This document shows positions 31,970 to 60,520 of a DNA stretch of 64,000 nucleotides, piece after piece. This DNA is from an uncultured Ruminococcus sp. (GTDB lineage Bacteria; Bacillota; Clostridia; Oscillospirales; CAG-272). The notes beneath the pieces were generated by a model, which saw nothing but the letters and a program-made list of their open reading frames with translations, had not been told where the DNA came from and did no database searches. How positions within the stretch are numbered: position 1 is the stretch's first letter; the number at the start of each line of letters is the position of its first letter. Both the position numbers and the translations under genes were made by a program. The stretch is taken from contig CAYSEF010000005.1 of NCBI GenBank assembly GCA_964430105.1, positions 183-64,182 on the forward strand. The letters run 5' to 3'.

Positions 31970-33451
31970 TCAGTTGTGAGATTCGTAGTTCTTATTAATA
32001 ACTTCGATTGTCTTATTAAGAACCTTTTCTCTTCTTTTTGCTTCAGAAACGATATCACGAGTATCGTTATAGAACATCTTAGTGATGAAACCGTCACGGA
32101 TATCACCGCAGAAGTAGGAGTCACCAAGGTCGAGAAGTGCGGTATCGAAAATAAGGTCAACCATATCAGCAGATTCTTCGTCACGAGCATACTTACCCTT
32201 GAGCGCAATATCCTTGTATGTAGGAAGTACGGAATTGAAGGATTCGCAGGTAATTGCTTCGAGAATAATGGAAGAACGCTCAACATCAGGAGTAGATGTA
32301 GGAACAACAGAAGTATCAAACATAGAAACACGGCTGATATATTCTGCCTGGTTTTCATCCCACTTCGGGAAAGGAAGAATACCGAATTCGCTTTCCATAT
32401 CACGCATAGTGTCGATCCAATAGAAAATAGTACCGAGGAACAGACCCTGGTTATTACGGAACATATTGTGATATGTAGTACCTTCGTTGGATTCGTCGTT
32501 TGTCAAATACCATGCGTTATTGTCGTTACAAATTGCAAAGATCTTTGTAAATACGTCAACAAAGTGTTCATCTTTGGATATCTTTACTACAGGATAGTTA
32601 TTTTCATCCTTCTGAACGTAAAGTGCGCCACCTGCCTGGATAAATGAGCAATGAGTATACTTAGAGGAACCGAGAAGACCCCATGTATCGCTTGCATCGT
32701 ACACACCGTCACCGTTTGCATCATTGGTAACCTGGCCTGCCATTTCGCCGAACTTATCGAATGTCCACTTGCCTTCTCTTACGAGAGTATATGGATCTTC
32801 AAGGCCGTTATTCTTAAGAAGCTCCTTATTGAAAAGAAGTACGTTGAGGTAGTCGATAACAACAAGGTTAGCTGAACCGATAGCTACATAGTTACGATCA
32901 CCGAATGCGATAGAATGAGTCAGATCTGCATCCCAATAAGGCATATCGAGCTTGATATGTTCGAGAGTGTCGATATCAATACAATAATTTCTCTGAGCCA
33001 TGTTGTTCGCCTGAGTACAACGAACATTCATGAGAGAATAAGTCTGGTCACCGGCAGTAACAAGAGTAGTAGGATCACCTTCGTTAGAGTAAACCTGTTC
33101 TGTGAGATTTACATCGAAGCGTTCTTCGATCATTGAATTTCTGTAGTAAATAGCGTCATTGAGTGCTTCTGCGTTCAGTTCTTCAACAAGGAACTGATAG
33201 TGAGTTGTGTTGGTACGGCTGAAAATATTATAGTCAGCTCCGTTGTATTTAACTTCGGGAAGACCATCATCAATTTTCTCTACGGTATCTGCGGATGCAT
33301 CAACATCAACAACAGATTCGTCAGCTACAGAACCATTTGTTTCTGTAGGAGTGTTTTTTGTTTCGTCTTCATTGACTCCGGATTCGGAGCAAGCAACTAT
33401 AGACGGTGCAAGCATTGCACAGAGCAAAAGAAGGGAAATTACCTTTTTCAT
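31970..33451 (-). CDS. extracellular solute-binding lipoprotein (large ABC substrate-binding-protein type), orphan
   Basis: Signal/lipobox MKKVISLLLLCAMLAPSIVAC, about 490 aa, LipO/family-1-like. ATG 33451 is preceded by GGAGG. No permease or ATPase gene is adjacent. Confidence 0.6.
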   Translation of the reverse strand: MKKVISLLLLCAMLAPSIVACSESGVNEDETKNTPTETNGSVADESVVDVDASADTVEKIDDGLPEVKYNGADYNIFSRTNTTHYQFLVEELNAEALNDAIYYRNSMIEERFDVNLTEQVYSNEGDPTTLVTAGDQTYSLMNVRCTQANNMAQRNYCIDIDTLEHIKLDMPYWDADLTHSIAFGDRNYVAIGSANLVVIDYLNVLLFNKELLKNNGLEDPYTLVREGKWTFDKFGEMAGQVTNDANGDGVYDASDTWGLLGSSKYTHCSFIQAGGALYVQKDENNYPVVKISKDEHFVDVFTKIFAICNDNNAWYLTNDESNEGTTYHNMFRNNQGLFLGTIFYWIDTMRDMESEFGILPFPKWDENQAEYISRVSMFDTSVVPTSTPDVERSSIILEAITCESFNSVLPTYKDIALKGKYARDEESADMVDLIFDTALLDLGDSYFCGDIRDGFITKMFYNDTRDIVSEAKRREKVLNKTIEVINKNYESHN

Positions 33452-33597
33452 TTTTGCCTCCAATTTATTTAATGACTAAAAATATGGTGGGTACATTATA
33501 GCACAAAAACTTAAATATTTCAACTACTAAAATAAAATTTGCGATAATAATCTTGAATTATTTACATTTCAACATCTATTCACATTGCTTTTAGATT

Positions 33598-48495: not shown

Positions 48496-49344
48496 TCAGA
48501 TTCGCTTCTTAACGCTCACAGAAGAACACAAACAAGCTCCGAATGCGCCTATTACAGCAAAACAAAGCCACATACAGGTTTTATCCGCCGTAGCAGGTGA
48601 ATATTCCACGCTTTCAGAAACATTGTCTGGCACTCTAACAGGTGATTCGTCAGCTGCATAAGAATGTTCAGCGTAATATCCCGTTTTCTCAACATAATCT
48701 GTTCCGTGAACGACGTAAATCTCGTCAACCGCTATGTTGGCATTGCGAACAACAAATCCCATACCGCCTTCATTCACCAGAAGAACATTGTTGCGCTTTA
48801 TTTTATATTCTACATCATTATATGTAAAAATAATTTCATTCAGCACCCATGAACGAATCGGAATCTTTACGTTTACATATTCTCCACCTGCGATAGCTTC
48901 CCTCAAAACAGCATCAGGCTCATCAAAGTTGTCAACAGTTCCGTTAGCACGGATAACAAGTGCGCTGATATTTGAAGGTTCATCGCCACGACAAGTAAGA
49001 ATCGGTGCTAAATAACCGTTTTCAGTATGGATATCGGTAAATCTAAACGTAAATTCAATGGTATATGATCCTTCATCGTTTCTTTCGACTTCAGGAAATA
49101 TAACATAAACCCTTCCCGTGTCATAAGTTTCTACTTTAAGCGACTCATTCGGGCATCCTATCATTGAATTGTATGAAGTAGCAGAACCGATACTCAAACC
49201 GCTTTCAAGTATATCTGAAACTGCGCTGAAATCCTGATGATACAGCACATCACCAACCACACGTTCAGCATCCATTGCCGAAACATAAGAAAAACAGGAG
49301 ATAAGTATCACGAGTACCATTATCAACGGGTAGAATCTCTTCAT
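48496..49344 (-). CDS. secreted beta-rich protein with C-terminal SPATA motif + TM + KKRI tail (possible sortase substrate)
   Basis: Signal peptide MKRFYPLIMVLVILISCFSYVSA. The C-terminus is ...YSPATADKT-CMWLCFAVIGAFGACLCSSVSV-KKRI. A terminator lies at 48428-48466. Confidence 0.5.
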   Translation of the reverse strand: MKRFYPLIMVLVILISCFSYVSAMDAERVVGDVLYHQDFSAVSDILESGLSIGSATSYNSMIGCPNESLKVETYDTGRVYVIFPEVERNDEGSYTIEFTFRFTDIHTENGYLAPILTCRGDEPSNISALVIRANGTVDNFDEPDAVLREAIAGGEYVNVKIPIRSWVLNEIIFTYNDVEYKIKRNNVLLVNEGGMGFVVRNANIAVDEIYVVHGTDYVEKTGYYAEHSYAADESPVRVPDNVSESVEYSPATADKTCMWLCFAVIGAFGACLCSSVSVKKRI

Positions 49345-49507: not shown

Positions 49508-49550
49508 AAAAGAGACGTTCTTCGAAATCTCGTCCGAAAAACGTCTCTCA
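49508..49550 (-). terminator. rho-independent terminator after the GH-like operon
   Basis: Minus strand AGAGACGTT...AACGTCTCT followed by TTTTTTTT. Confidence 0.75.
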
Positions 49551-49562
49551 GTTATTCTATTA

Positions 49563-52500
49563 TCACTTGCTCATCTTTTCAAAAGCAGCAAGTCTTTCTT
49601 TGTAATATTCATTGCACGTTGCATCATACAAAAGTTCAGCAGCCTTTACAGCAACACCATAGATATCAACATCGTTTGGCTGATATTTCATACCATATTG
49701 TGCTCTGTCAAGACCTATTCTTTCGTACGCGAAACGGAAATCTTCTTCTGCGCATTTACGAGCATATCTTGCGAATGTCAAATCATGCTCAGCGTAAAGC
49801 AACGACGCTCTTGCCTCGACAGTCGCAGCCATAAAGTTTGCATAAGGATCGTTGTTTGCAGGAATCTTGATATCATCCCCGTCACCGATAATGCCCTTTG
49901 TCCAAACCGCAATAGGTGCTGAAACGCAACGATATCCATCCTCAAATCTTGTACGGAGCATCCATTCGATACCATGTCTTGCTTCGTCTATCAAAGCGTA
50001 ATACAGCTCAGAGTTGCTTTCCTTTGCTTTTTCAGCAAAATCAAGAAGCTCAGTTACTGTTTCGACAGATTTACACAAATCATGCGAATAATCGTCAACA
50101 TCATGCCAACCTCCACCAATCGGTGCAAGTCTTCCGTCGGGATGAACAGCAAAGCAGTCCTCATGGCAAGGGATATGAACACCGGGAACATCATATCCAC
50201 ATCTTCTTAAACGCAATTCAACTATCTTTTCCCAAGCTGTATCCTGCCATGTTTTTTCACCACAGCAATCGCAAGCAGTTTCAGACTCGCCTTTTTCAAG
50301 TGCCAATTCTCTGAAATTAAGCACAGAGTAAGCAGACATATTCGCCTGTGCACCTGTAAGCGGATGCACAACATTGACTGAAATCACACAGTCACGAGGA
50401 ATATCGTTAATATCCCAAACAAGCTTTTTCCACTTGCCATTTGCTATCTTGAATCTCTTTGTATATGTGTCAGCCTTCTTTTCACCGTCTATTTCATCCA
50501 CATTTGTAAGCGCAAGCTCGATATTAACGCCCTGATATCCCTCACAATCAGCGCAAGCCCACACTGTAAGCTTATTCCATTCAGTTAAATCTGCCTTATC
50601 CTGTGCGACACAAAGCTCTGCTGTACCGTGATCAAGTCTTGTCTGAATCGGAATTCTCGGGCCACGAGGAGCCTCAACCGATTTTACAATAGTATTAGGA
50701 GCTGTTACCTTAATAACGCTTCCATATTCTTTATCATTGACAGCTTCTGCATAGCCGGGGCCTCTAAAGGTGAAGCCATCATAGGAATCAAGAGCACAAA
50801 TAACCTTCTTTTCGGCTGAATCCTTCGATACGCAGCAATTATCGTCGCATATTTCCGCTATCTTTGAGGCTTCAAGCCTCTTTTCACCATCACCGTAAAG
50901 GTCAGCGAGAACCCACAAAAGTCTTGATGTAGTGTGTACCCAAACTTCCTTATAAACCGCGTTATTCATTTGCGGGAAATTCGGACAGTCGTGGTCACCA
51001 TCAGTCCAAATACCTACGGGAACACCACCAACAAGCTGATGCGAGAACATTACGAACAGATCGGGATAATTATAGCCTTCACCATACATTGTGCACTGCG
51101 AGAACGGGTTCATACCGAGTATCCACTCAACCTGTCTTTGAGCTATCTTATTAAGCTCCTCGTCCTCGAGAACTCTTGCAGCCTGAGTTACACATTTTGC
51201 TTTTGTAAGGCAGGTTCCGTTATATCCACGGAAATCAGATGCAACGGGGAAAATTCTGAGGTAATATTCATCAGAAAGGCGTATACCACTTCTTATCTGA
51301 CCATCAAAATCTTCTCTGCCTCTTCCGCCGCCAAGACGATAAATTGCATTCGGAAGGAGTCCATACGGCTTTGTAAATTCAGCTATAGTCTTAATATATT
51401 CTCCGTAAAGTGCAAGACCTTCCTTCCATTTGTGTGCATCGGGATGATTCGGTGCAGCTTCGTACATACGTGCAAGACCCATAACCGGAGCCTGTTCGTG
51501 TGCACGGTGATTATATGCCATTGGTTCAGCATTTTTACTGTTTGAATTATAGAAGAAGCCTCTTATCGGCACATCCCAGTTCGGCATTTCCTGCTGCTGG
51601 CATTCAAGCACGATATTTGCAAGGATAGCGCCTTTTTTCAGTATTTCTTCGTCACCACACACTTTATAGATAGTTCCGGCTGCAACTGCGCCCTGACCTA
51701 TTGTTTGAGTATTGATACCACGCTGGAACGCTCTGAGATATGCAAAATTGAAGTCTTCAATAGCACACTTCAAGCAATATTCAGCAAATGCCGGATCAGA
51801 TTCACGGAACGCTTCATACCCTGCCGCTTCAGCACCGGCACCACAGAAATTCTCAAATGGATCATATTCAGCCGGAAGAACAAGATCGTCCATATCGCCG
51901 AGAATATTGTTTGTCCATGTACCTACACGAGTCCAGCGAGCACGATAACCGTCACCAAATCTTGTTTTAAGGCACCAATCAAGTCCCCAACGTGCTTCGT
52001 CAAGAAGTCTGTTATACATTGCAGGATCGGAATTCTTTACACGCATTGCAAGATCAATCATGGCATGAGCGGATTCTGAGGTATTGCAAAGTCCCTGCGA
52101 CATATCACCGGCATCGTGCCAACCGCCACCTGAGGAAACAAGTCTTCCGTCGGGATGCTGTGCGTATGTATCGAGGTGACATACACGGTGAACTCCTTCA
52201 ACCTCACAGCCACAGCGTTCCTGATAGAAGAAATTCATCGCCTTCCAAATAGGTGATGCATATGCCTCGTTATCTATTTGGAATTTTCCAGTTTTTTGTT
52301 CGCCTAACTTAAGCACATATTCGCCAACTTTATCGAAGCCTGTGAAATCCATTGCGACATAAGTGCCGAAATTCGTTTCCATTTTTGTTACAGGAGCAGT
52401 ATATTCCACTTCACCTGTTTTAGCATCAAGAAGCTCGAATGTATCAGCGGTTGTGTCCTGAGTATATGCAAACTTAGGCATACCGGGCTCATAACCGACA

Positions 52501-53183
52501 TGGCAGAACGCTATTCTGTCGTTAAGCTCCCAGCCTTCATAGAAATCCTCATCGACCTTTTCAAGATGGATAGGGCCAAAGTGGAATTTCTTCCAAAGAT
52601 CGCTTCCCTGCTGTCTTCCGTCTACTGTACAACGAAGCTGAATACCTATAATACGATCACGGTGAGTGTTTGGAATTTCCCATACGATATGGTTCCATTC
52701 ACCGGAATTGAGCTGTAGGATCAGTGTATCAGCAAGCAAGCCTGAACGATGAAGATCTTCTTCTCTGTCATTTACAAGTGTAATAAGGAAATACACATTA
52801 TCATAAGTAGGAAGATCAGGATATATTTCAAATGTAAGCCTGTTATATTCTCGCCAATCCTCACATGGGAACTGAACCAGAGTATGTGTATCACCGTACA
52901 CCTTCATTCGTGACATTGCAAGTCTTTCAATAGTGAACTGTGCAGGCGGGGACATTAATACGGTAGGTTTTCCGTCATACAGCACGTCACTGCTCATTTC
53001 AAGTGTACCTATTCCGCTGAGTCTTAGATTATCAAGCGAATCCATAGCATGAAGCAGTCTGCTTTCCTTAGCAGGCTTTGAATAGATACGCGTTGCATGT
53101 GCCTTTGAAAGATCCGGCTTCATTGCACGGTATGCATTTTGGCTTTGTGCCAGAAGATCCTTTAACTCTTTTGTATATGCCAT
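49563..53183 (-). CDS. cytoplasmic GH9-like protein with internal duplication (full module + truncated second module)
   Basis: 1206 aa with no signal peptide. Module 1 has a CelD_N-like Ig domain (RIAFCHVGYEPGMPKFAY...FFYQERCG) and an (alpha/alpha)6-type region with GGGWHDAGD. Module 2 (about aa 795-1206) repeats the beta-domain and the first half of the barrel, with GGGWHDVDD. Confidence 0.6.
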   Translation of the reverse strand: MAYTKELKDLLAQSQNAYRAMKPDLSKAHATRIYSKPAKESRLLHAMDSLDNLRLSGIGTLEMSSDVLYDGKPTVLMSPPAQFTIERLAMSRMKVYGDTHTLVQFPCEDWREYNRLTFEIYPDLPTYDNVYFLITLVNDREEDLHRSGLLADTLILQLNSGEWNHIVWEIPNTHRDRIIGIQLRCTVDGRQQGSDLWKKFHFGPIHLEKVDEDFYEGWELNDRIAFCHVGYEPGMPKFAYTQDTTADTFELLDAKTGEVEYTAPVTKMETNFGTYVAMDFTGFDKVGEYVLKLGEQKTGKFQIDNEAYASPIWKAMNFFYQERCGCEVEGVHRVCHLDTYAQHPDGRLVSSGGGWHDAGDMSQGLCNTSESAHAMIDLAMRVKNSDPAMYNRLLDEARWGLDWCLKTRFGDGYRARWTRVGTWTNNILGDMDDLVLPAEYDPFENFCGAGAEAAGYEAFRESDPAFAEYCLKCAIEDFNFAYLRAFQRGINTQTIGQGAVAAGTIYKVCGDEEILKKGAILANIVLECQQQEMPNWDVPIRGFFYNSNSKNAEPMAYNHRAHEQAPVMGLARMYEAAPNHPDAHKWKEGLALYGEYIKTIAEFTKPYGLLPNAIYRLGGGRGREDFDGQIRSGIRLSDEYYLRIFPVASDFRGYNGTCLTKAKCVTQAARVLEDEELNKIAQRQVEWILGMNPFSQCTMYGEGYNYPDLFVMFSHQLVGGVPVGIWTDGDHDCPNFPQMNNAVYKEVWVHTTSRLLWVLADLYGDGEKRLEASKIAEICDDNCCVSKDSAEKKVICALDSYDGFTFRGPGYAEAVNDKEYGSVIKVTAPNTIVKSVEAPRGPRIPIQTRLDHGTAELCVAQDKADLTEWNKLTVWACADCEGYQGVNIELALTNVDEIDGEKKADTYTKRFKIANGKWKKLVWDINDIPRDCVISVNVVHPLTGAQANMSAYSVLNFRELALEKGESETACDCCGEKTWQDTAWEKIVELRLRRCGYDVPGVHIPCHEDCFAVHPDGRLAPIGGGWHDVDDYSHDLCKSVETVTELLDFAEKAKESNSELYYALIDEARHGIEWMLRTRFEDGYRCVSAPIAVWTKGIIGDGDDIKIPANNDPYANFMAATVEARASLLYAEHDLTFARYARKCAEEDFRFAYERIGLDRAQYGMKYQPNDVDIYGVAVKAAELLYDATCNEYYKERLAAFEKMSK

Positions 53184-53228: not shown

Positions 53229-55616
53229 TTACTCAGTGATACCGAGCATTTCAAGATATCTTGCAAAGCTGATAAACTTTACGAAAGGTACAGACGCATA
53301 CATTTCCAGCTCATCATCCTGTGTACGCAGTGCCTTATCCCAAATATCCTCAAGCATCGTCATAAGCGGATACTCAACGCCATGTTCAAGTGCTTCTCTG
53401 AGCATTTGTTCAAATTTTTCTTCTGTTCTCCAAACTCTGTTGTGACCTGTCACGCTTCCGTTTTGGAGATTTCTGTCATCCCATGGGCAGTTATTGTAAT
53501 CCATAGAATGATATCTCGGAATTACCCAAATTCCTGTTCCATCAGGCCCTACCCAATCGGCAACCTCAGCATCTATCGCAGATTCATAGCCATACGGTGC
53601 CCACTGAGTTCTGTTTGAAACTGCATACAAGCCAAACGAACGAAGTATCTGTGGCATCTGAGCGTAGGTTCCGTGTTCCTGGTTATTGAACACCTTTACA
53701 TCATAGTCGCAGTTTTCCTTGATCGCCTTCATACCATAGTACATCTGACGAATATTGGATTCACCGCTGACAATAAGCGCAAACGGTTCACACCATGTAC
53801 CACCTGTTATTTCGACTGTGCCATCCTTGAGATATTTTTTCAGCTCCTCGAGATATTCAGGCTCGTTAATACCCATTCTTACCCAGCAACTTCCGCCAAC
53901 TTCCCACGCATTGGTATATCCCGGATATTTTTTGGTACGTTCCATTTCGATTTCCATTGTAGGAGTATGCTTTTCAAGCGGACGAACAAATCCATCATGA
54001 TAGCCGGATACAAAATAGAGGTACTTTCCATCTGTATTTGTAATAGGTGAAGCTCCGCACGAACCATCACATTCAAACTGGCTCTTAAGCTCCCATCCGC
54101 TTGGAGTATCGGCAAACACCTTAGCCTGAAGCGTTTCAGGGCCTTGTACGGGTTCAGCCTTACCTTGAATAAGAATAGTCTTGATTTCCCACGGACGCAT
54201 TTTGAAAGCTTTTCCGATAACGCTGACAGCTTCAAGATTATGCTTGCATTCTGTATAAACCGTATCTTCGCCACCGAATGTAAGCTCTACTTCATCAGCC
54301 TGACCTGCCCATTCAGCTATACGAAGATAAATTTTGCCCTCTCTCTCAAACAGTGCTGTTGCAATAGTAGAATTTGCTTTAATTCTAAGCAAAGAGGTTG
54401 CTTCAATAGTATTTGTACCGTCATCAATACCTGTATCTGTCGCAAATATCGGACGATTAAATTCATGTGATCTTTGAGTAAGCTCTGCTATACGCCAATC
54501 TCCTGTATACGGCAAGAAACGATAGTGATGAACGTGCTTACCGGTGAGTAACAGCTGCTGTGGTCTGCCGTAAATATAGTCATGTGGTGAGAATGAAAGT
54601 ACATGACGGCAAGAGGATTCTTCATACTCGTGACCGTATGCACATTGACCGATATTCATGTGTGCAAGACCATATCCGCTTCCCTGCAATGCAGTATAAT
54701 GCAAGCTTTCAAGTGAACGTGCTTTAGGATCTGCGTGCCATGTAAGGAAAGGCGACACATAAAGAAGCTGTGCGTTTTTCTCCTCAAGAGAATAATTCAT
54801 ACAAAGCTTTTTTTCATGCTGGAAATAATGTGTACGACGAGGTTCGGGTTCAAAATCCTTGATATCCGGACCAAAATTACAGCCATCACCATAATCAAAC
54901 TCGGTAGTTACATCGATATAACCGGAAGTCAGTGTAAAATGATGTGTATAGCTTACATCGCCAAGCTTACCTTCGAGAATAGCATGACGATTTCCTAAAT
55001 CATCAACATATGTATCCTTTACAGCAGGAGGAGCATTTCTTGAATCGAGCAATTTATTATCTACTTCAACCGTAAGATTACCGAGGAACGCTTTTTTACC
55101 ACCTACAGTTATCTCAAAAGTACCATCGGGCATAAGCTCTGCCGAATATGATTTACAGCTGTTATTCGCTACTCCCGCAGACTTTTTTGTCTTTCCGATA
55201 TAACCAAACGCCGGCACAGGTTCTCCGTTAGCATTGCATCTGCTCCATGAAAGTGCGTTTATCTCTACGTCACCGCCAAGCTTTTCGGCGATATACTTTC
55301 CTGCATCAGCCTTAATTGAATCTGCCATAGGGCCTGCTTCTTCACACCATGCAATACCCGCTTCATCCTGCATACAAACATGAACGTCATGGTTTTGGCT
55401 ATTAAGCAGTGTTTTCCATGCTTCATCAAGTCTATCGGAATAGCTGTCAGCGCCAAGCATTACTGCCATAGCTGCCGTTGTTTCAGCATCAAGCAGTTTA
55501 TTCTCGACTTCCTGTTGCATTATACGAACTCTGTCACCCCTTACACCCCACGGAAATGTTGAAACGAAGTCCTGCTGAGTGAGTTTTACTGTCGGAAAAG
55601 TCTTCTTTGCGCTCAT
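53229..55616 (-). CDS. cytoplasmic GH38-like protein with circularly permuted domain order
   Basis: 795 aa. The N-terminus resembles the GH38 middle domain (AWKTLLNSQNHD). Roughly aa 130-485 looks like the GH38 C-terminal beta region (HHYRFLPYTGDW..., ...RPWEIKTILI). Roughly aa 530-795 looks like the GH38 N-terminal catalytic domain (ITGGTWCEPFALIVSGESNIRQ..., MPQILRSFG). AAGGAGG RBS. Confidence 0.6.
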   Translation of the reverse strand: MSAKKTFPTVKLTQQDFVSTFPWGVRGDRVRIMQQEVENKLLDAETTAAMAVMLGADSYSDRLDEAWKTLLNSQNHDVHVCMQDEAGIAWCEEAGPMADSIKADAGKYIAEKLGGDVEINALSWSRCNANGEPVPAFGYIGKTKKSAGVANNSCKSYSAELMPDGTFEITVGGKKAFLGNLTVEVDNKLLDSRNAPPAVKDTYVDDLGNRHAILEGKLGDVSYTHHFTLTSGYIDVTTEFDYGDGCNFGPDIKDFEPEPRRTHYFQHEKKLCMNYSLEEKNAQLLYVSPFLTWHADPKARSLESLHYTALQGSGYGLAHMNIGQCAYGHEYEESSCRHVLSFSPHDYIYGRPQQLLLTGKHVHHYRFLPYTGDWRIAELTQRSHEFNRPIFATDTGIDDGTNTIEATSLLRIKANSTIATALFEREGKIYLRIAEWAGQADEVELTFGGEDTVYTECKHNLEAVSVIGKAFKMRPWEIKTILIQGKAEPVQGPETLQAKVFADTPSGWELKSQFECDGSCGASPITNTDGKYLYFVSGYHDGFVRPLEKHTPTMEIEMERTKKYPGYTNAWEVGGSCWVRMGINEPEYLEELKKYLKDGTVEITGGTWCEPFALIVSGESNIRQMYYGMKAIKENCDYDVKVFNNQEHGTYAQMPQILRSFGLYAVSNRTQWAPYGYESAIDAEVADWVGPDGTGIWVIPRYHSMDYNNCPWDDRNLQNGSVTGHNRVWRTEEKFEQMLREALEHGVEYPLMTMLEDIWDKALRTQDDELEMYASVPFVKFISFARYLEMLGITE

Positions 55617-55834
55617 TATGTAGTCCTCCTTTGATTTACCGGATGTAGCATTATTTATAATCTATAGTTTAATCTATCTTTGCACCGATAGATATAGCCA
55701 ATTTATACAAGCTAATAATAACATAAGCCTTCGGCATTGTCAAGACAATTTTGTAATATATGTATTATTTTTTTATTGACTGTCACAACTTTTAATAATT
55801 GAAGCAACTGAGCTTTTGTGTTAGTAAGGTTAAT

Positions 55835-59509: not shown

Positions 59510-60520
59510 ATGAACGAAATTTTATCTGAATTCTATATTTGTTCGTGCGAAAACGATGGCGGTATGTATCGCTTTGTTTTTACAGATGACGAAAATCTTA
59601 TTTGTACACAAAAAATCGACATTCCAAATCCGCTTTGGGCTGAAGTAACGGAAGAAAAGCTTTGCGTATGCGCATTAGGCAAAAATTGGGAAAGTGGCAA
59701 AACTGACAACAGCGAAGGCTATGCAGAATTTTCCCTTGCATCAGGTGAGTTGATCGGTGATATTACTCCGCTTGACAGCAATGAAGTTTGTCATTTATGC
59801 ATAACGAATGATAAAGTGTATCTGGCAAGCTATGGTGACGGAAGTATTATCACCAAAATGCCTGATGGCACACTGCAAAAGCTAACTCATAAGGCAAGCG
59901 AAGCAATTCCGCTCGGGAAAAATATCGAACGTCAGGAAAGACCTCATGCACACCATTGCCTGCTTTCACCGGATGGAAAATTTCTGTTGGTATGTGACCT
60001 TGGGCTTGACTGTGTATTTGTATATGACCTTGATTTGAAGCTAATATCATACGCTAAAATCCCATGCAGTCACGGAGCAAGACATTCTGTTTTTTCAAAG
60101 GATGGCAAAAAAGTCTACATTCTCGGTGAAATGGGTACATCCGTTACTGAATTTTTATGGGATAACGGATATCTTACACCAAAAAACACAGTAAGCATTA
60201 GAGTACAAGATAAAATCACAGCCGACGGTGCAGCGGCAATACGTCTTTCAAGCGATGGCGAACATTTATACTGTACAGACAGGGGAGAAAATATGATAGC
60301 ACACCTTACGACAAGCGAAGGCTTAAAGCTGATCTCGCAGACTCAGTGCGGTGGTATACATCCCAGGGATTTCACGCTTATATCAAACGGAAAATATGGC
60401 GTGTGCTGTAACAGATTTTCAAACAACATTGCACTATTCAGAATAAACAACGAGCATGAACTTGAATTTATCAGATCGTATGATATTCCCTCGCCTGTGT
60501 GCGTCAGTGAAATAAAATAA
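59510..60520 (+). CDS. 7-bladed beta-propeller lactonase family protein (6-phosphogluconolactonase-like)
   Basis: 336 aa with HAHHCLLSPDGKFLLVCDLGLDCVFVYD, typical of this family. Terminator at 60524-60575. Confidence 0.65.
   Translation: MNEILSEFYICSCENDGGMYRFVFTDDENLICTQKIDIPNPLWAEVTEEKLCVCALGKNWESGKTDNSEGYAEFSLASGELIGDITPLDSNEVCHLCITNDKVYLASYGDGSIITKMPDGTLQKLTHKASEAIPLGKNIERQERPHAHHCLLSPDGKFLLVCDLGLDCVFVYDLDLKLISYAKIPCSHGARHSVFSKDGKKVYILGEMGTSVTEFLWDNGYLTPKNTVSIRVQDKITADGAAAIRLSSDGEHLYCTDRGENMIAHLTTSEGLKLISQTQCGGIHPRDFTLISNGKYGVCCNRFSNNIALFRINNEHELEFIRSYDIPSPVCVSEIK

Follow-up and report, generated by a model that had tools for sequence, protein, structure and literature searches.

The window analysed here is a stretch of 64,000 nucleotides from contig CAYSEF010000005.1 of an uncultured Ruminococcus sp. 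(assembly GCA_964430105.1). Its minus strand carries a gene for a protein of 795 amino acids (aa) that is related to glycoside hydrolase family 38 (GH38) and in which the domains follow one another in a circularly permuted order. The original prediction for this gene had proposed the order middle domain, C-terminal beta region and catalytic domain, together with altered catalytic motifs. The gene is followed by a gene for a GH9 protein, and the locus comprises the following features:

53229..55616, minus strand: complete coding sequence for the permuted GH38-like protein (795 aa and a stop codon), supported by the open reading frame and by 31 collinear full-length homologues.
55625..55632, minus strand: Shine-Dalgarno sequence AAAGGAGG, with a spacing of 8 nt to the ATG, visible in the sequence itself.
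55715..55743, minus strand: promoter-like site (TTGACA, 17 nt, TG, TATTAT) approximately 100 bp upstream of the start codon, found by consensus match alone.
49563..53183, minus strand: downstream co-transcribed gene for a signal-less protein of 1206 aa with immunoglobulin-like and GH9 parts (Pfam GH9 and CelD_N).
49510..49549, minus strand: intrinsic-terminator-like hairpin (17-bp stem and T run) right after the GH9 stop codon, found by pattern match alone.

The open reading frame of the permuted gene is intact and its translation agrees with the sequence quoted in the original prediction. Stop codons stand in frame directly 5' of the ATG and, together with the strong Shine-Dalgarno sequence, they show that the N-terminus is real and that no extra domain lies upstream. 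A hidden upstream domain or a wrong start is further excluded by homologues with leaders for twin-arginine translocation (Tat), since these leaders directly adjoin the same N-terminal motif with which the window protein begins. The window protein itself has no signal peptide, as was also predicted. The promoter-like site matches 11 of 12 consensus positions and has the extended -10 TG. The gap between the permuted gene and the GH9 gene is 45 bp, and the two form an operon bracketed by promoter, Shine-Dalgarno sequence and terminator. This operon is surrounded by housekeeping genes (PepF, MurJ, hrcA-grpE-dnaK-dnaJ, TilS and FtsH).

From the N-terminus onwards, the protein is composed of the following segments:

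55533..55616, minus strand: aa 1-28, the new N-terminus with the segment PxVxLTQQDFVSTFPWGxRGD (invariant residues, alignment to canonical-order relatives).
55278..55532, minus strand: aa 29-113, three-helix bundle equivalent to Alpha-mann_mid, with NSQNHDVHV containing His76 and Asp77 (Pfam, model).
54165..55277, minus strand: aa 114-484, beta-sandwich region corresponding to the C-terminal domains of GH38, with ...MRPWEIKTILI at its end (hhalign, model).
54027..54164, minus strand: aa 485-530, linker from the old C-terminus to the old N-terminus, with invariant P505, W508 and F514.
53232..54026, minus strand: aa 531-795, (beta/alpha)7 catalytic barrel of the GH38 N-domain or GH57-like type, ending in ...FISFARYLEMLGITE (Pfam, hhalign, Foldseek).

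Residues 1-28 are the counterpart of the stretch that connects barrel and three-helix bundle in canonical proteins. They align with the '...(D/E)(F/I/L)...PWG' of canonical-order relatives, and D16, F17, S19, T20, P22, W23, G24 and D28 are invariant across the family. In the AlphaFold2 model the bundle is made of helices 29-53, 60-72 and 84-113, and the region 114-484 is all-beta. By hhalign this region matches positions 620-1054 of an alignment of canonical GH38 enzymes with 1058 positions, which served as the canonical reference in the hhalign comparisons with GH38. The C-terminal-type region ends with ...RPWEIKTILI at aa 484 and is followed by a linker of approximately 45 residues (485-530), just as had been noted earlier. 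The barrel carries the motifs H540-D541, GGTWCEP, N645-Q-E647-H648, R669, Y702 and E756-D757.

The proposed domain order was borne out by Pfam, by phmmer and hmmsearch against the PDB and by hhalign. The Pfam scan shows the permuted order: Alpha-mann_mid matches aa 33-78 (E 1.5e-4, short of its cutoff), Glyco_hydro_38N (PF01074) matches aa 580-745 with 53 bits (cutoff 25; E 4e-14), and GH38C gave no match. The GH57 profile of Pfam was also matched, at aa 550-663 with 23 bits against a cutoff of 21.2, and 48-166 of its 291 positions were covered. In NCBIfam, mannosylglycerate hydrolase was matched weakly and in part, with 37 bits where the cutoff is 1138, and this match was set aside as uninformative. 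With phmmer, query residues 584-672 were aligned to residues 347-437 of chain 7UFR and query residues 38-90 to residues 580-630 of the same chain. The profile comparison by hhalign placed family positions 29-484 on canonical 540-1054 (probability 99.3, E 1.6e-20) and 581-709 on canonical 318-446 (probability 98.9). With a clade-wide, more diverse profile the second match was extended to family 549-794 on canonical 287-517 (probability 99.6, 229 columns). The barrel match thus runs to the very end of the window protein, and the C-terminal-region match stops four residues short of the canonical end.

The structure models lead to the same view. The AlphaFold2 model of the whole protein is confident, with a pLDDT of 86.6 and a pTM of 0.91, and its top 40 Foldseek neighbours in the PDB are all GH38 (E approximately 1e-18). 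The TM-scores are near 0.45, as expected of a sequential aligner, which can superpose one of the two swapped blocks only. When the C-terminal block (aa 521-795) was modelled alone (pLDDT 79.5), it resembled the GH57 barrel of 1k1x, its best match (TM 0.60), and GH38 barrels (TM 0.55-0.61). GH38-type barrel, three-helix middle domain and C-terminal beta domains are all present by homology, and the GH38-type order of barrel, helical bundle and beta domains is reversed in all 31 members of the family. We consider it nearly certain that the circular permutation is real.

A search of a large protein database gave approximately 31 full-length homologues of 793-909 aa, all collinear with the query and 48-100% identical to it. 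They come from independent assemblies in three phyla, Firmicutes, Bacteroidota and Planctomycetota, and their sources include an Eubacteriales metagenome-assembled genome (MAG), an Oscillospiraceae MAG, a Phycisphaerales MAG, another planctomycete, Sunxiuqinia and a Prolixibacteraceae MAG in which a single contig carries two copies. The Phycisphaerales member sits on a closed 5.06-Mb chromosome (CP070806.1). A chimeric contig or a mis-joined reading frame might in principle mimic a permutation. The order is shared by 31 collinear proteins from independent assemblies, one of them a closed chromosome, and the window gene has an intact promoter, Shine-Dalgarno sequence and reading frame; an artefact of assembly or annotation is therefore ruled out for practical purposes, with a vanishingly small residual chance.

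The family is compact and rare. An exhaustive HMMER search of 1.84 billion cluster representatives returned 4663 matches at E <= 1e-3 and 133 at E <= 1e-30, and the permuted architecture was represented there by one full-length 50%-identity cluster and fragments, from which the compactness is judged. Scanning 185,579 species genomes gave 6 loci, and the metagenomes of the Joint Genome Institute (JGI) gave 11. Approximately 130 positions are invariant across the 31 members. Most Gram-negative members (P0016-P0031) have N-terminal leaders, approximately nine of them with a clear twin-arginine motif (MKRRDFIK...AG), and Firmicutes-type members have none. Judging from the leaders, the same enzyme appears to act in different compartments; passage through Tat in a folded state may be a sign that a cofactor or metal is bound.

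The next-best matches of the exhaustive search were proteins of 800-920 aa scoring 220-310 bits, as against approximately 76 bits for ordinary GH38. In these proteins, the nearest relatives beyond the family itself, the Pfam domains stand in canonical order, barrel first. Examples of this sister clade are P0042, P0047, P0055, P0062 and P0066, from Sedimentisphaerales and other uncultured bacteria, and the entries are all unnamed or 'hypothetical'; indeed, neither the family nor the sister-clade proteins carry a functional name in the databases. The motifs GYHGG / YDHLG, (Q/G/S)E(H/P), RT(H/Q), (E/D)D, QHHD and PWG are like those of the permuted family, whereas the order is not, and D541, E610, Q646 and N75 are specific to the permuted family. 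On sequence grounds the permuted family can be placed in a broader uncharacterised clade between GH38 and GH57. The sister clade (P0042-P0066) is sizeable and made up of GH38/GH57-intermediate proteins with a conserved Glu instead of the GH38 Asp nucleophile, and some of its proteins score better against Pfam GH57 than against GH38N.

With the non-permuted relatives at hand, the breakpoint could be located. Eight family members were un-permuted in silico by joining aa 521-795 to aa 1-520 and were aligned with 16 canonical-order relatives. The un-permuted sequences are collinear with the relatives throughout, and in the relatives the positions of the family C-terminus (...VKFISFARYLEMLGITE) and N-terminus (..FPTVKLTQQDFVSTFPWG..) fall side by side in a single short loop, between '...VKFISFARYLEML' and 'PxVxLTQQDF..PWG'. 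Two collinear blocks have thus been swapped, the new termini lie in one loop and the old termini are linked, which is what is expected of a natural permutant. The conserved motif PxGWxxKxxF of the linker is matched in the alignment by DWxNSxWF, a tail already present at the C-terminus of relatives P0047, P0048 and P0057, and the 45-aa linker can accordingly be traced to this tail of some non-permuted relatives. The rearrangement may have proceeded by duplication and then deletion, or by fission and then fusion. Permutation by duplication, as originally suggested, is plausible; no obvious tandem intermediate of the barrel-bundle-beta-barrel type was seen among the top 150 exhaustive matches.

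Natural permutation is already known in glycosidases: GH70 glucansucrases are circularly permuted relative to GH13 with the fold retained (PMC11299179). The folds are unrelated to the one considered here, and the GH70 permutation cuts the (beta/alpha)8 barrel itself, whereas here an intact barrel has changed its place as a whole with respect to the accessory domains. The literature that could be searched contained no account of a permuted GH38, and as far as that literature shows a permuted GH38 is new.

In other respects the window protein shares much with GH38 enzymes such as S. pombe Ams1 (6LZ1), B. longum Man38A (7UFR) and S. pyogenes SpGH38 (2WYH). The modules, i.e., barrel, three-helix bundle and beta-sandwiches, are the same, and GG(T)W..E, SGES.IRQ, PQIL, the Arg after the nucleophile strand, the 'RPWEI.T' ending and QxHD are common to both. 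It differs from them in the permuted order, in having Gln646 and Glu647 for the Asp, GYHDG for HxHxD and His648 for the stacking Phe, and also in that Pfam recognizes part of its N-domain only, with the middle domain below the cutoff.

In SpAms1 zinc is bound by H290, D292, D402 and H615, D402 is the nucleophile, D493 the acid/base and D616 binds the substrate (PMC7609781). The counterparts in SpGH38 are the ligands H13, D15, D125 and H351 and the acid/base D232, with R149, Y192 and F127 nearby (PMC2815779). A comparison of 7UFR with its nucleophile mutant 7UFU (LPDSFG and LPASFG, respectively) confirms that the GH38 nucleophile lies in the PDxFG motif. HMMER gave the following correspondences with the window protein:

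SpAms1 D402 (nucleophile, Zn ligand): Q646.
SpAms1 F404 (stacks on the sugar): H648.
SpAms1 H615 (Zn ligand): H76.
SpAms1 D616 (substrate binding): D77.

The replacement of PDxFG by QEHG, as originally read, is upheld by HMMER, which puts NQEHG on the PDxFG motif with Gln646 on the Asp. All 31 members have an invariant Gln646 there in place of the Asp, with Glu647 next to it, and in the QxHD of the helical bundle H76 and D77 are invariant. The other proposed replacement, SGYHD for HxHxD, held in part: SGYHDG is found positionally at the end of barrel strand 1, but that stretch was not aligned by any tool. In the GYHDG at this place H540 is invariant clade-wide and D541 within the permuted family only. 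Residues invariant in the family and the sister clade alike are H540, E619, R623, E647, R669, T670, D757, W67, Q74, H76, D77 and K270. As the unusual motifs are common to the canonical-order sister clade, the remodelled active site is older than the permutation. The original prediction can thus be refined in two points: judging by the sequences, the departure from the canonical catalytic motifs did not arise through the permutation, and the key catalytic candidate is Glu647 rather than Gln646.

The case for Glu647 comes from GH57. The clade-wide barrel profile matches a fragment of the GH57 4-alpha-glucanotransferase of Thermococcus litoralis (TLGT; 1K1W/1K1X) with 39.7 bits in HMMER and 97% in hhalign, and this alignment, taken alone, places E647 exactly on Glu123. 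In TLGT Glu123 is the nucleophile and Asp214 the acid/base (PMC5347038). It is because of the GH57 alignment and the conservation that Glu647 is assigned as the putative nucleophile. In the model D757 is found where the last strand of the barrel ends. The likeness to GH57 covers the barrel fold and, on the equivalent strand (region 3 of GH57), the Glu in the nucleophile position, whereas the helical bundle with QxHD and the beta domains align with GH38. The five conserved regions of GH57 are not reproduced as a set, as region 1 (HQP) is not conserved and regions 4, which holds the Asp acid/base, and 5 are not alignable.

Loss of the Asp nucleophile and of part of the Zn tetrad could also be taken to mean that the protein is a dead carbohydrate-binding or scaffolding protein. 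Of the approximately 130 invariant residues, however, many are polar and clustered on the active-site motifs, E647, D757, H76, D77 and R669 are kept without exception in the sister clade as well, distant as it is, and the gene lies among enzymes in operons and polysaccharide utilization loci (PULs). A pseudoenzyme is accordingly regarded as very improbable.

The surroundings of family genes were compared in a sample of approximately 13 independent loci. In an Oscillospiraceae MAG (L008) a homologous GH9 gene (E 2e-44) directly follows the family gene, as in the window, and two ATP-binding cassette (ABC) permease genes, a lipoprotein binding protein, GH5 and GH2 are also present. Other Firmicutes-type loci have two CE4 genes and a GFO/IDH/MocA oxidoreductase, or nothing relevant. 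The Gram-negative loci, in which the proteins have Tat-like leaders, show the following contexts:

Sunxiuqinia (L002): three GH92 genes, GH76, canonical GH38, aldose epimerase, two NIF3-like genes and a lactonase.
Prolixibacteraceae PUL 1 (L004): SusC/SusD, GH76 and a NIF3-like pair.
Prolixibacteraceae PUL 2 (L010): SusC/SusD, with a canonical GH38 gene immediately downstream.
Phycisphaerales (L003): GH92.
Other loci: GH123 and a second GH38-like gene; a GH2 beta-mannosidase-like gene; GH20 and NPCBM proteins.

GH76 and GH92 together mark alpha-mannan loci (PMC9213526). The common theme of these contexts suggests mannose-containing glycans. Two sister-clade loci (L012, L013) have heterogeneous contexts and give no help with the substrate.

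Could the protein then be an ordinary Zn-dependent GH38 alpha-mannosidase in which the order alone has changed, with, for example, E647 taking the role of the Asp as Zn ligand and nucleophile? The overall fold and the best structural neighbours, all of them GH38, are in agreement with this, as are the conserved H76/D77, R669 and Y702 at positions matching GH38 active-site residues and the co-occurrence with alpha-mannan enzymes. On the other hand, all 31 members have Gln for the Asp nucleophile, His stands in for the stacking Phe and the HxHxD motif is absent. In addition, the repeated adjacency to true GH38 genes (L002, L010) argues for an activity that is not redundant with theirs. We consider this explanation unlikely.

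GH38 mannose specificity depends on Zn binding to sugar hydroxyls, and a remodelled metal site could therefore also go with a different sugar or bond. The enzyme would then be of the alpha-galactosidase or alpha-glucosidase type, a GH57-like transglycosylase, or active on modified (methylated or phosphorylated) mannose decorations, and the mannan and N-glycan contexts would reflect side-chain removal. This would fit the score of the barrel against Pfam GH57 and the GH57 4-alpha-glucanotransferase as its top structural match, as well as the contexts with NPCBM proteins, GH20, GH123, URO-D-like and B12-binding genes, GH5, GH9 and GH2. Nothing, however, points directly to any specific alternative substrate, no alpha-glucan (starch or glycogen) genes were found in the neighbourhoods of family genes, and the GH38-type HD motif of the bundle, which binds mannose hydroxyls in GH38 (PMC2815779), is retained. 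A change of substrate of this kind seems distinctly improbable.

The best overall explanation, to which we give a probability of roughly 0.6, is that of a functional permuted glycosidase of the GH38 fold with the following mechanism and role. The chain starts in the loop that canonically follows the barrel, runs through the bundle and the beta-sandwiches, crosses the linker and ends with the barrel. The clade has kept the GH38 domain set and H76-D77, and its invariant E647 aligns with the GH57 nucleophile. The GH38 Asp, both nucleophile and ligand of Zn, has been lost from the clade (it is Gln646 in the window protein), and the HxD motif for Zn would likewise be gone. The protein is thus predicted to be a retaining glycosidase or transglycosidase with Glu647 as nucleophile and Asp757 as probable acid/base, the metal site being remodelled or absent. 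Its role may be the trimming of mannose-containing oligosaccharides. In this Firmicute the enzyme would be cytoplasmic and made from the two-gene operon with the GH9 enzyme; in Bacteroidota and Planctomycetota, where the genes lie in alpha-mannan-type loci, the enzyme would be periplasmic by way of Tat. For the mechanism and role taken by themselves, as read from sequence, our confidence is slightly short of even.

Several observations weigh against this explanation. The GH38 hidden Markov model (HMM) sets Gln646, not Glu647, on the nucleophile Asp, hhalign does not put D757 on the acid/base Asp of the canonical GDGGGG, and no tool brought H540 into register with the HxD motif of GH38. Of the four Zn ligands two are changed, and mannose specificity may have been lost with them. 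The contexts are few and heterogeneous, some loci (L001) have no carbohydrate genes, and others point elsewhere (GH20, GH123, CE4, URO-D-like genes, a glycyl-radical enzyme).

Taken jointly, the permuted family and its sister clade might form a new GH family, or a deep subfamily of GH38, and be a mechanistic link between GH38 and GH57, with GH38 architecture, a Glu as nucleophile and a metal site that is changed or absent. It would target a linkage in fungal or algal mannans or in N-glycans that known GH38, GH76, GH92 and GH125 enzymes do not cleave (e.g., at capped, methylated or phosphorylated mannose), and its permuted branch would be the first natural whole-domain permutation in this fold, spread horizontally across three phyla. 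We offer this wider proposal tentatively and would sooner expect parts of it to fail than the whole to stand.

The family is a rare, conserved and so far unstudied enzyme family. It would be a clean natural case of whole-domain permutation in a five-domain enzyme, of use for studies of protein evolution and for the engineering of GH38/GH57-fold enzymes, and because the permuted and the non-permuted lineages both survive, a direct comparison of the two shows where the break lies and where the linker came from. Annotation pipelines give such genes the label 'GH38 N-terminal domain-containing protein' or 'hypothetical protein' only, and consequently the family and its sister clade are missed in surveys of carbohydrate-active enzymes in gut, termite and marine or sediment microbiomes. 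The frequent adjacency to canonical GH38, GH76 and GH92 suggests an activity that is missing from models of alpha-mannan and N-glycan breakdown. If true, a Glu nucleophile in a GH38 scaffold makes the evolutionary link between GH38 and GH57 directly testable.

Some further genes recur near family genes. In three loci of the Firmicutes type the gene directly upstream of the family gene encodes a lipoprotein of approximately 550 aa with no Pfam match (L008, 7147-8823; L014, 636-2285; L016, 3818-5473), with 46-83% identity between them. In L008 and L016 it is preceded by two ABC permease genes, and in L014 the only gene upstream is cut off on the contig and has a tblastn match to one permease. 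The lipoprotein is probably the solute-binding protein of an importer supplying the enzyme. In two mannan-type loci of Bacteroidota (L002, 2086-3871; L004, 12576-14362) the family gene has a pair of NIF3-like (DUF34) genes as neighbours, together with a conserved protein of 342 aa that has no Pfam match. Genes of the URO-D family, which includes MtaA-like methyltransferases, were found near the family gene in two unrelated loci (L008, 16375-17406; L025, 6372-7382). A B12-binding protein with a PocR/AraC regulator is encoded beside the family gene in L001 (12719-14719), and a glycyl-radical enzyme with its activase in L014 (4896-7813). The URO-D, B12-binding and glycyl-radical neighbours hint at unusual sugar chemistry, e.g., methylated sugars.

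In the window, the GH9 protein has a partial internal duplication, aa 781-1206 resembling aa 35-484 with 33% identity. The second GH9 module ends about halfway through the catalytic domain, and no continuation was found in any other reading frame; the protein has no NCBIfam match and no signal peptide. Just downstream of the operon terminator lies a gene for a protein of 282 aa (48496-49344, minus strand) with an N-terminal signal or anchor, a hydrophobic C-terminal tail and its own promoter-like site (49404-49376); it has no Pfam match, and no homologue of it was found in the related loci. A lactonase-type 7-bladed beta-propeller of 336 aa (PF10282) is encoded on the plus strand at 59510-60520, 3.9 kb from the permuted gene. 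A homologue of it (32% identity, E 4e-31) lies immediately upstream of the family gene in Sunxiuqinia (L002, 9133-9903), and this proximity may reflect a functional link or a coincidence. Finally, a protein of 497 aa with no Pfam match (31970-33463, minus strand) is weakly similar, with 23% identity (E 6e-16), to a lipoprotein of L015 (6685-8169). The gene for that lipoprotein is on the strand opposite to the family gene and approximately 1 kb downstream of it, and a GFO/IDH/MocA gene separates the two.

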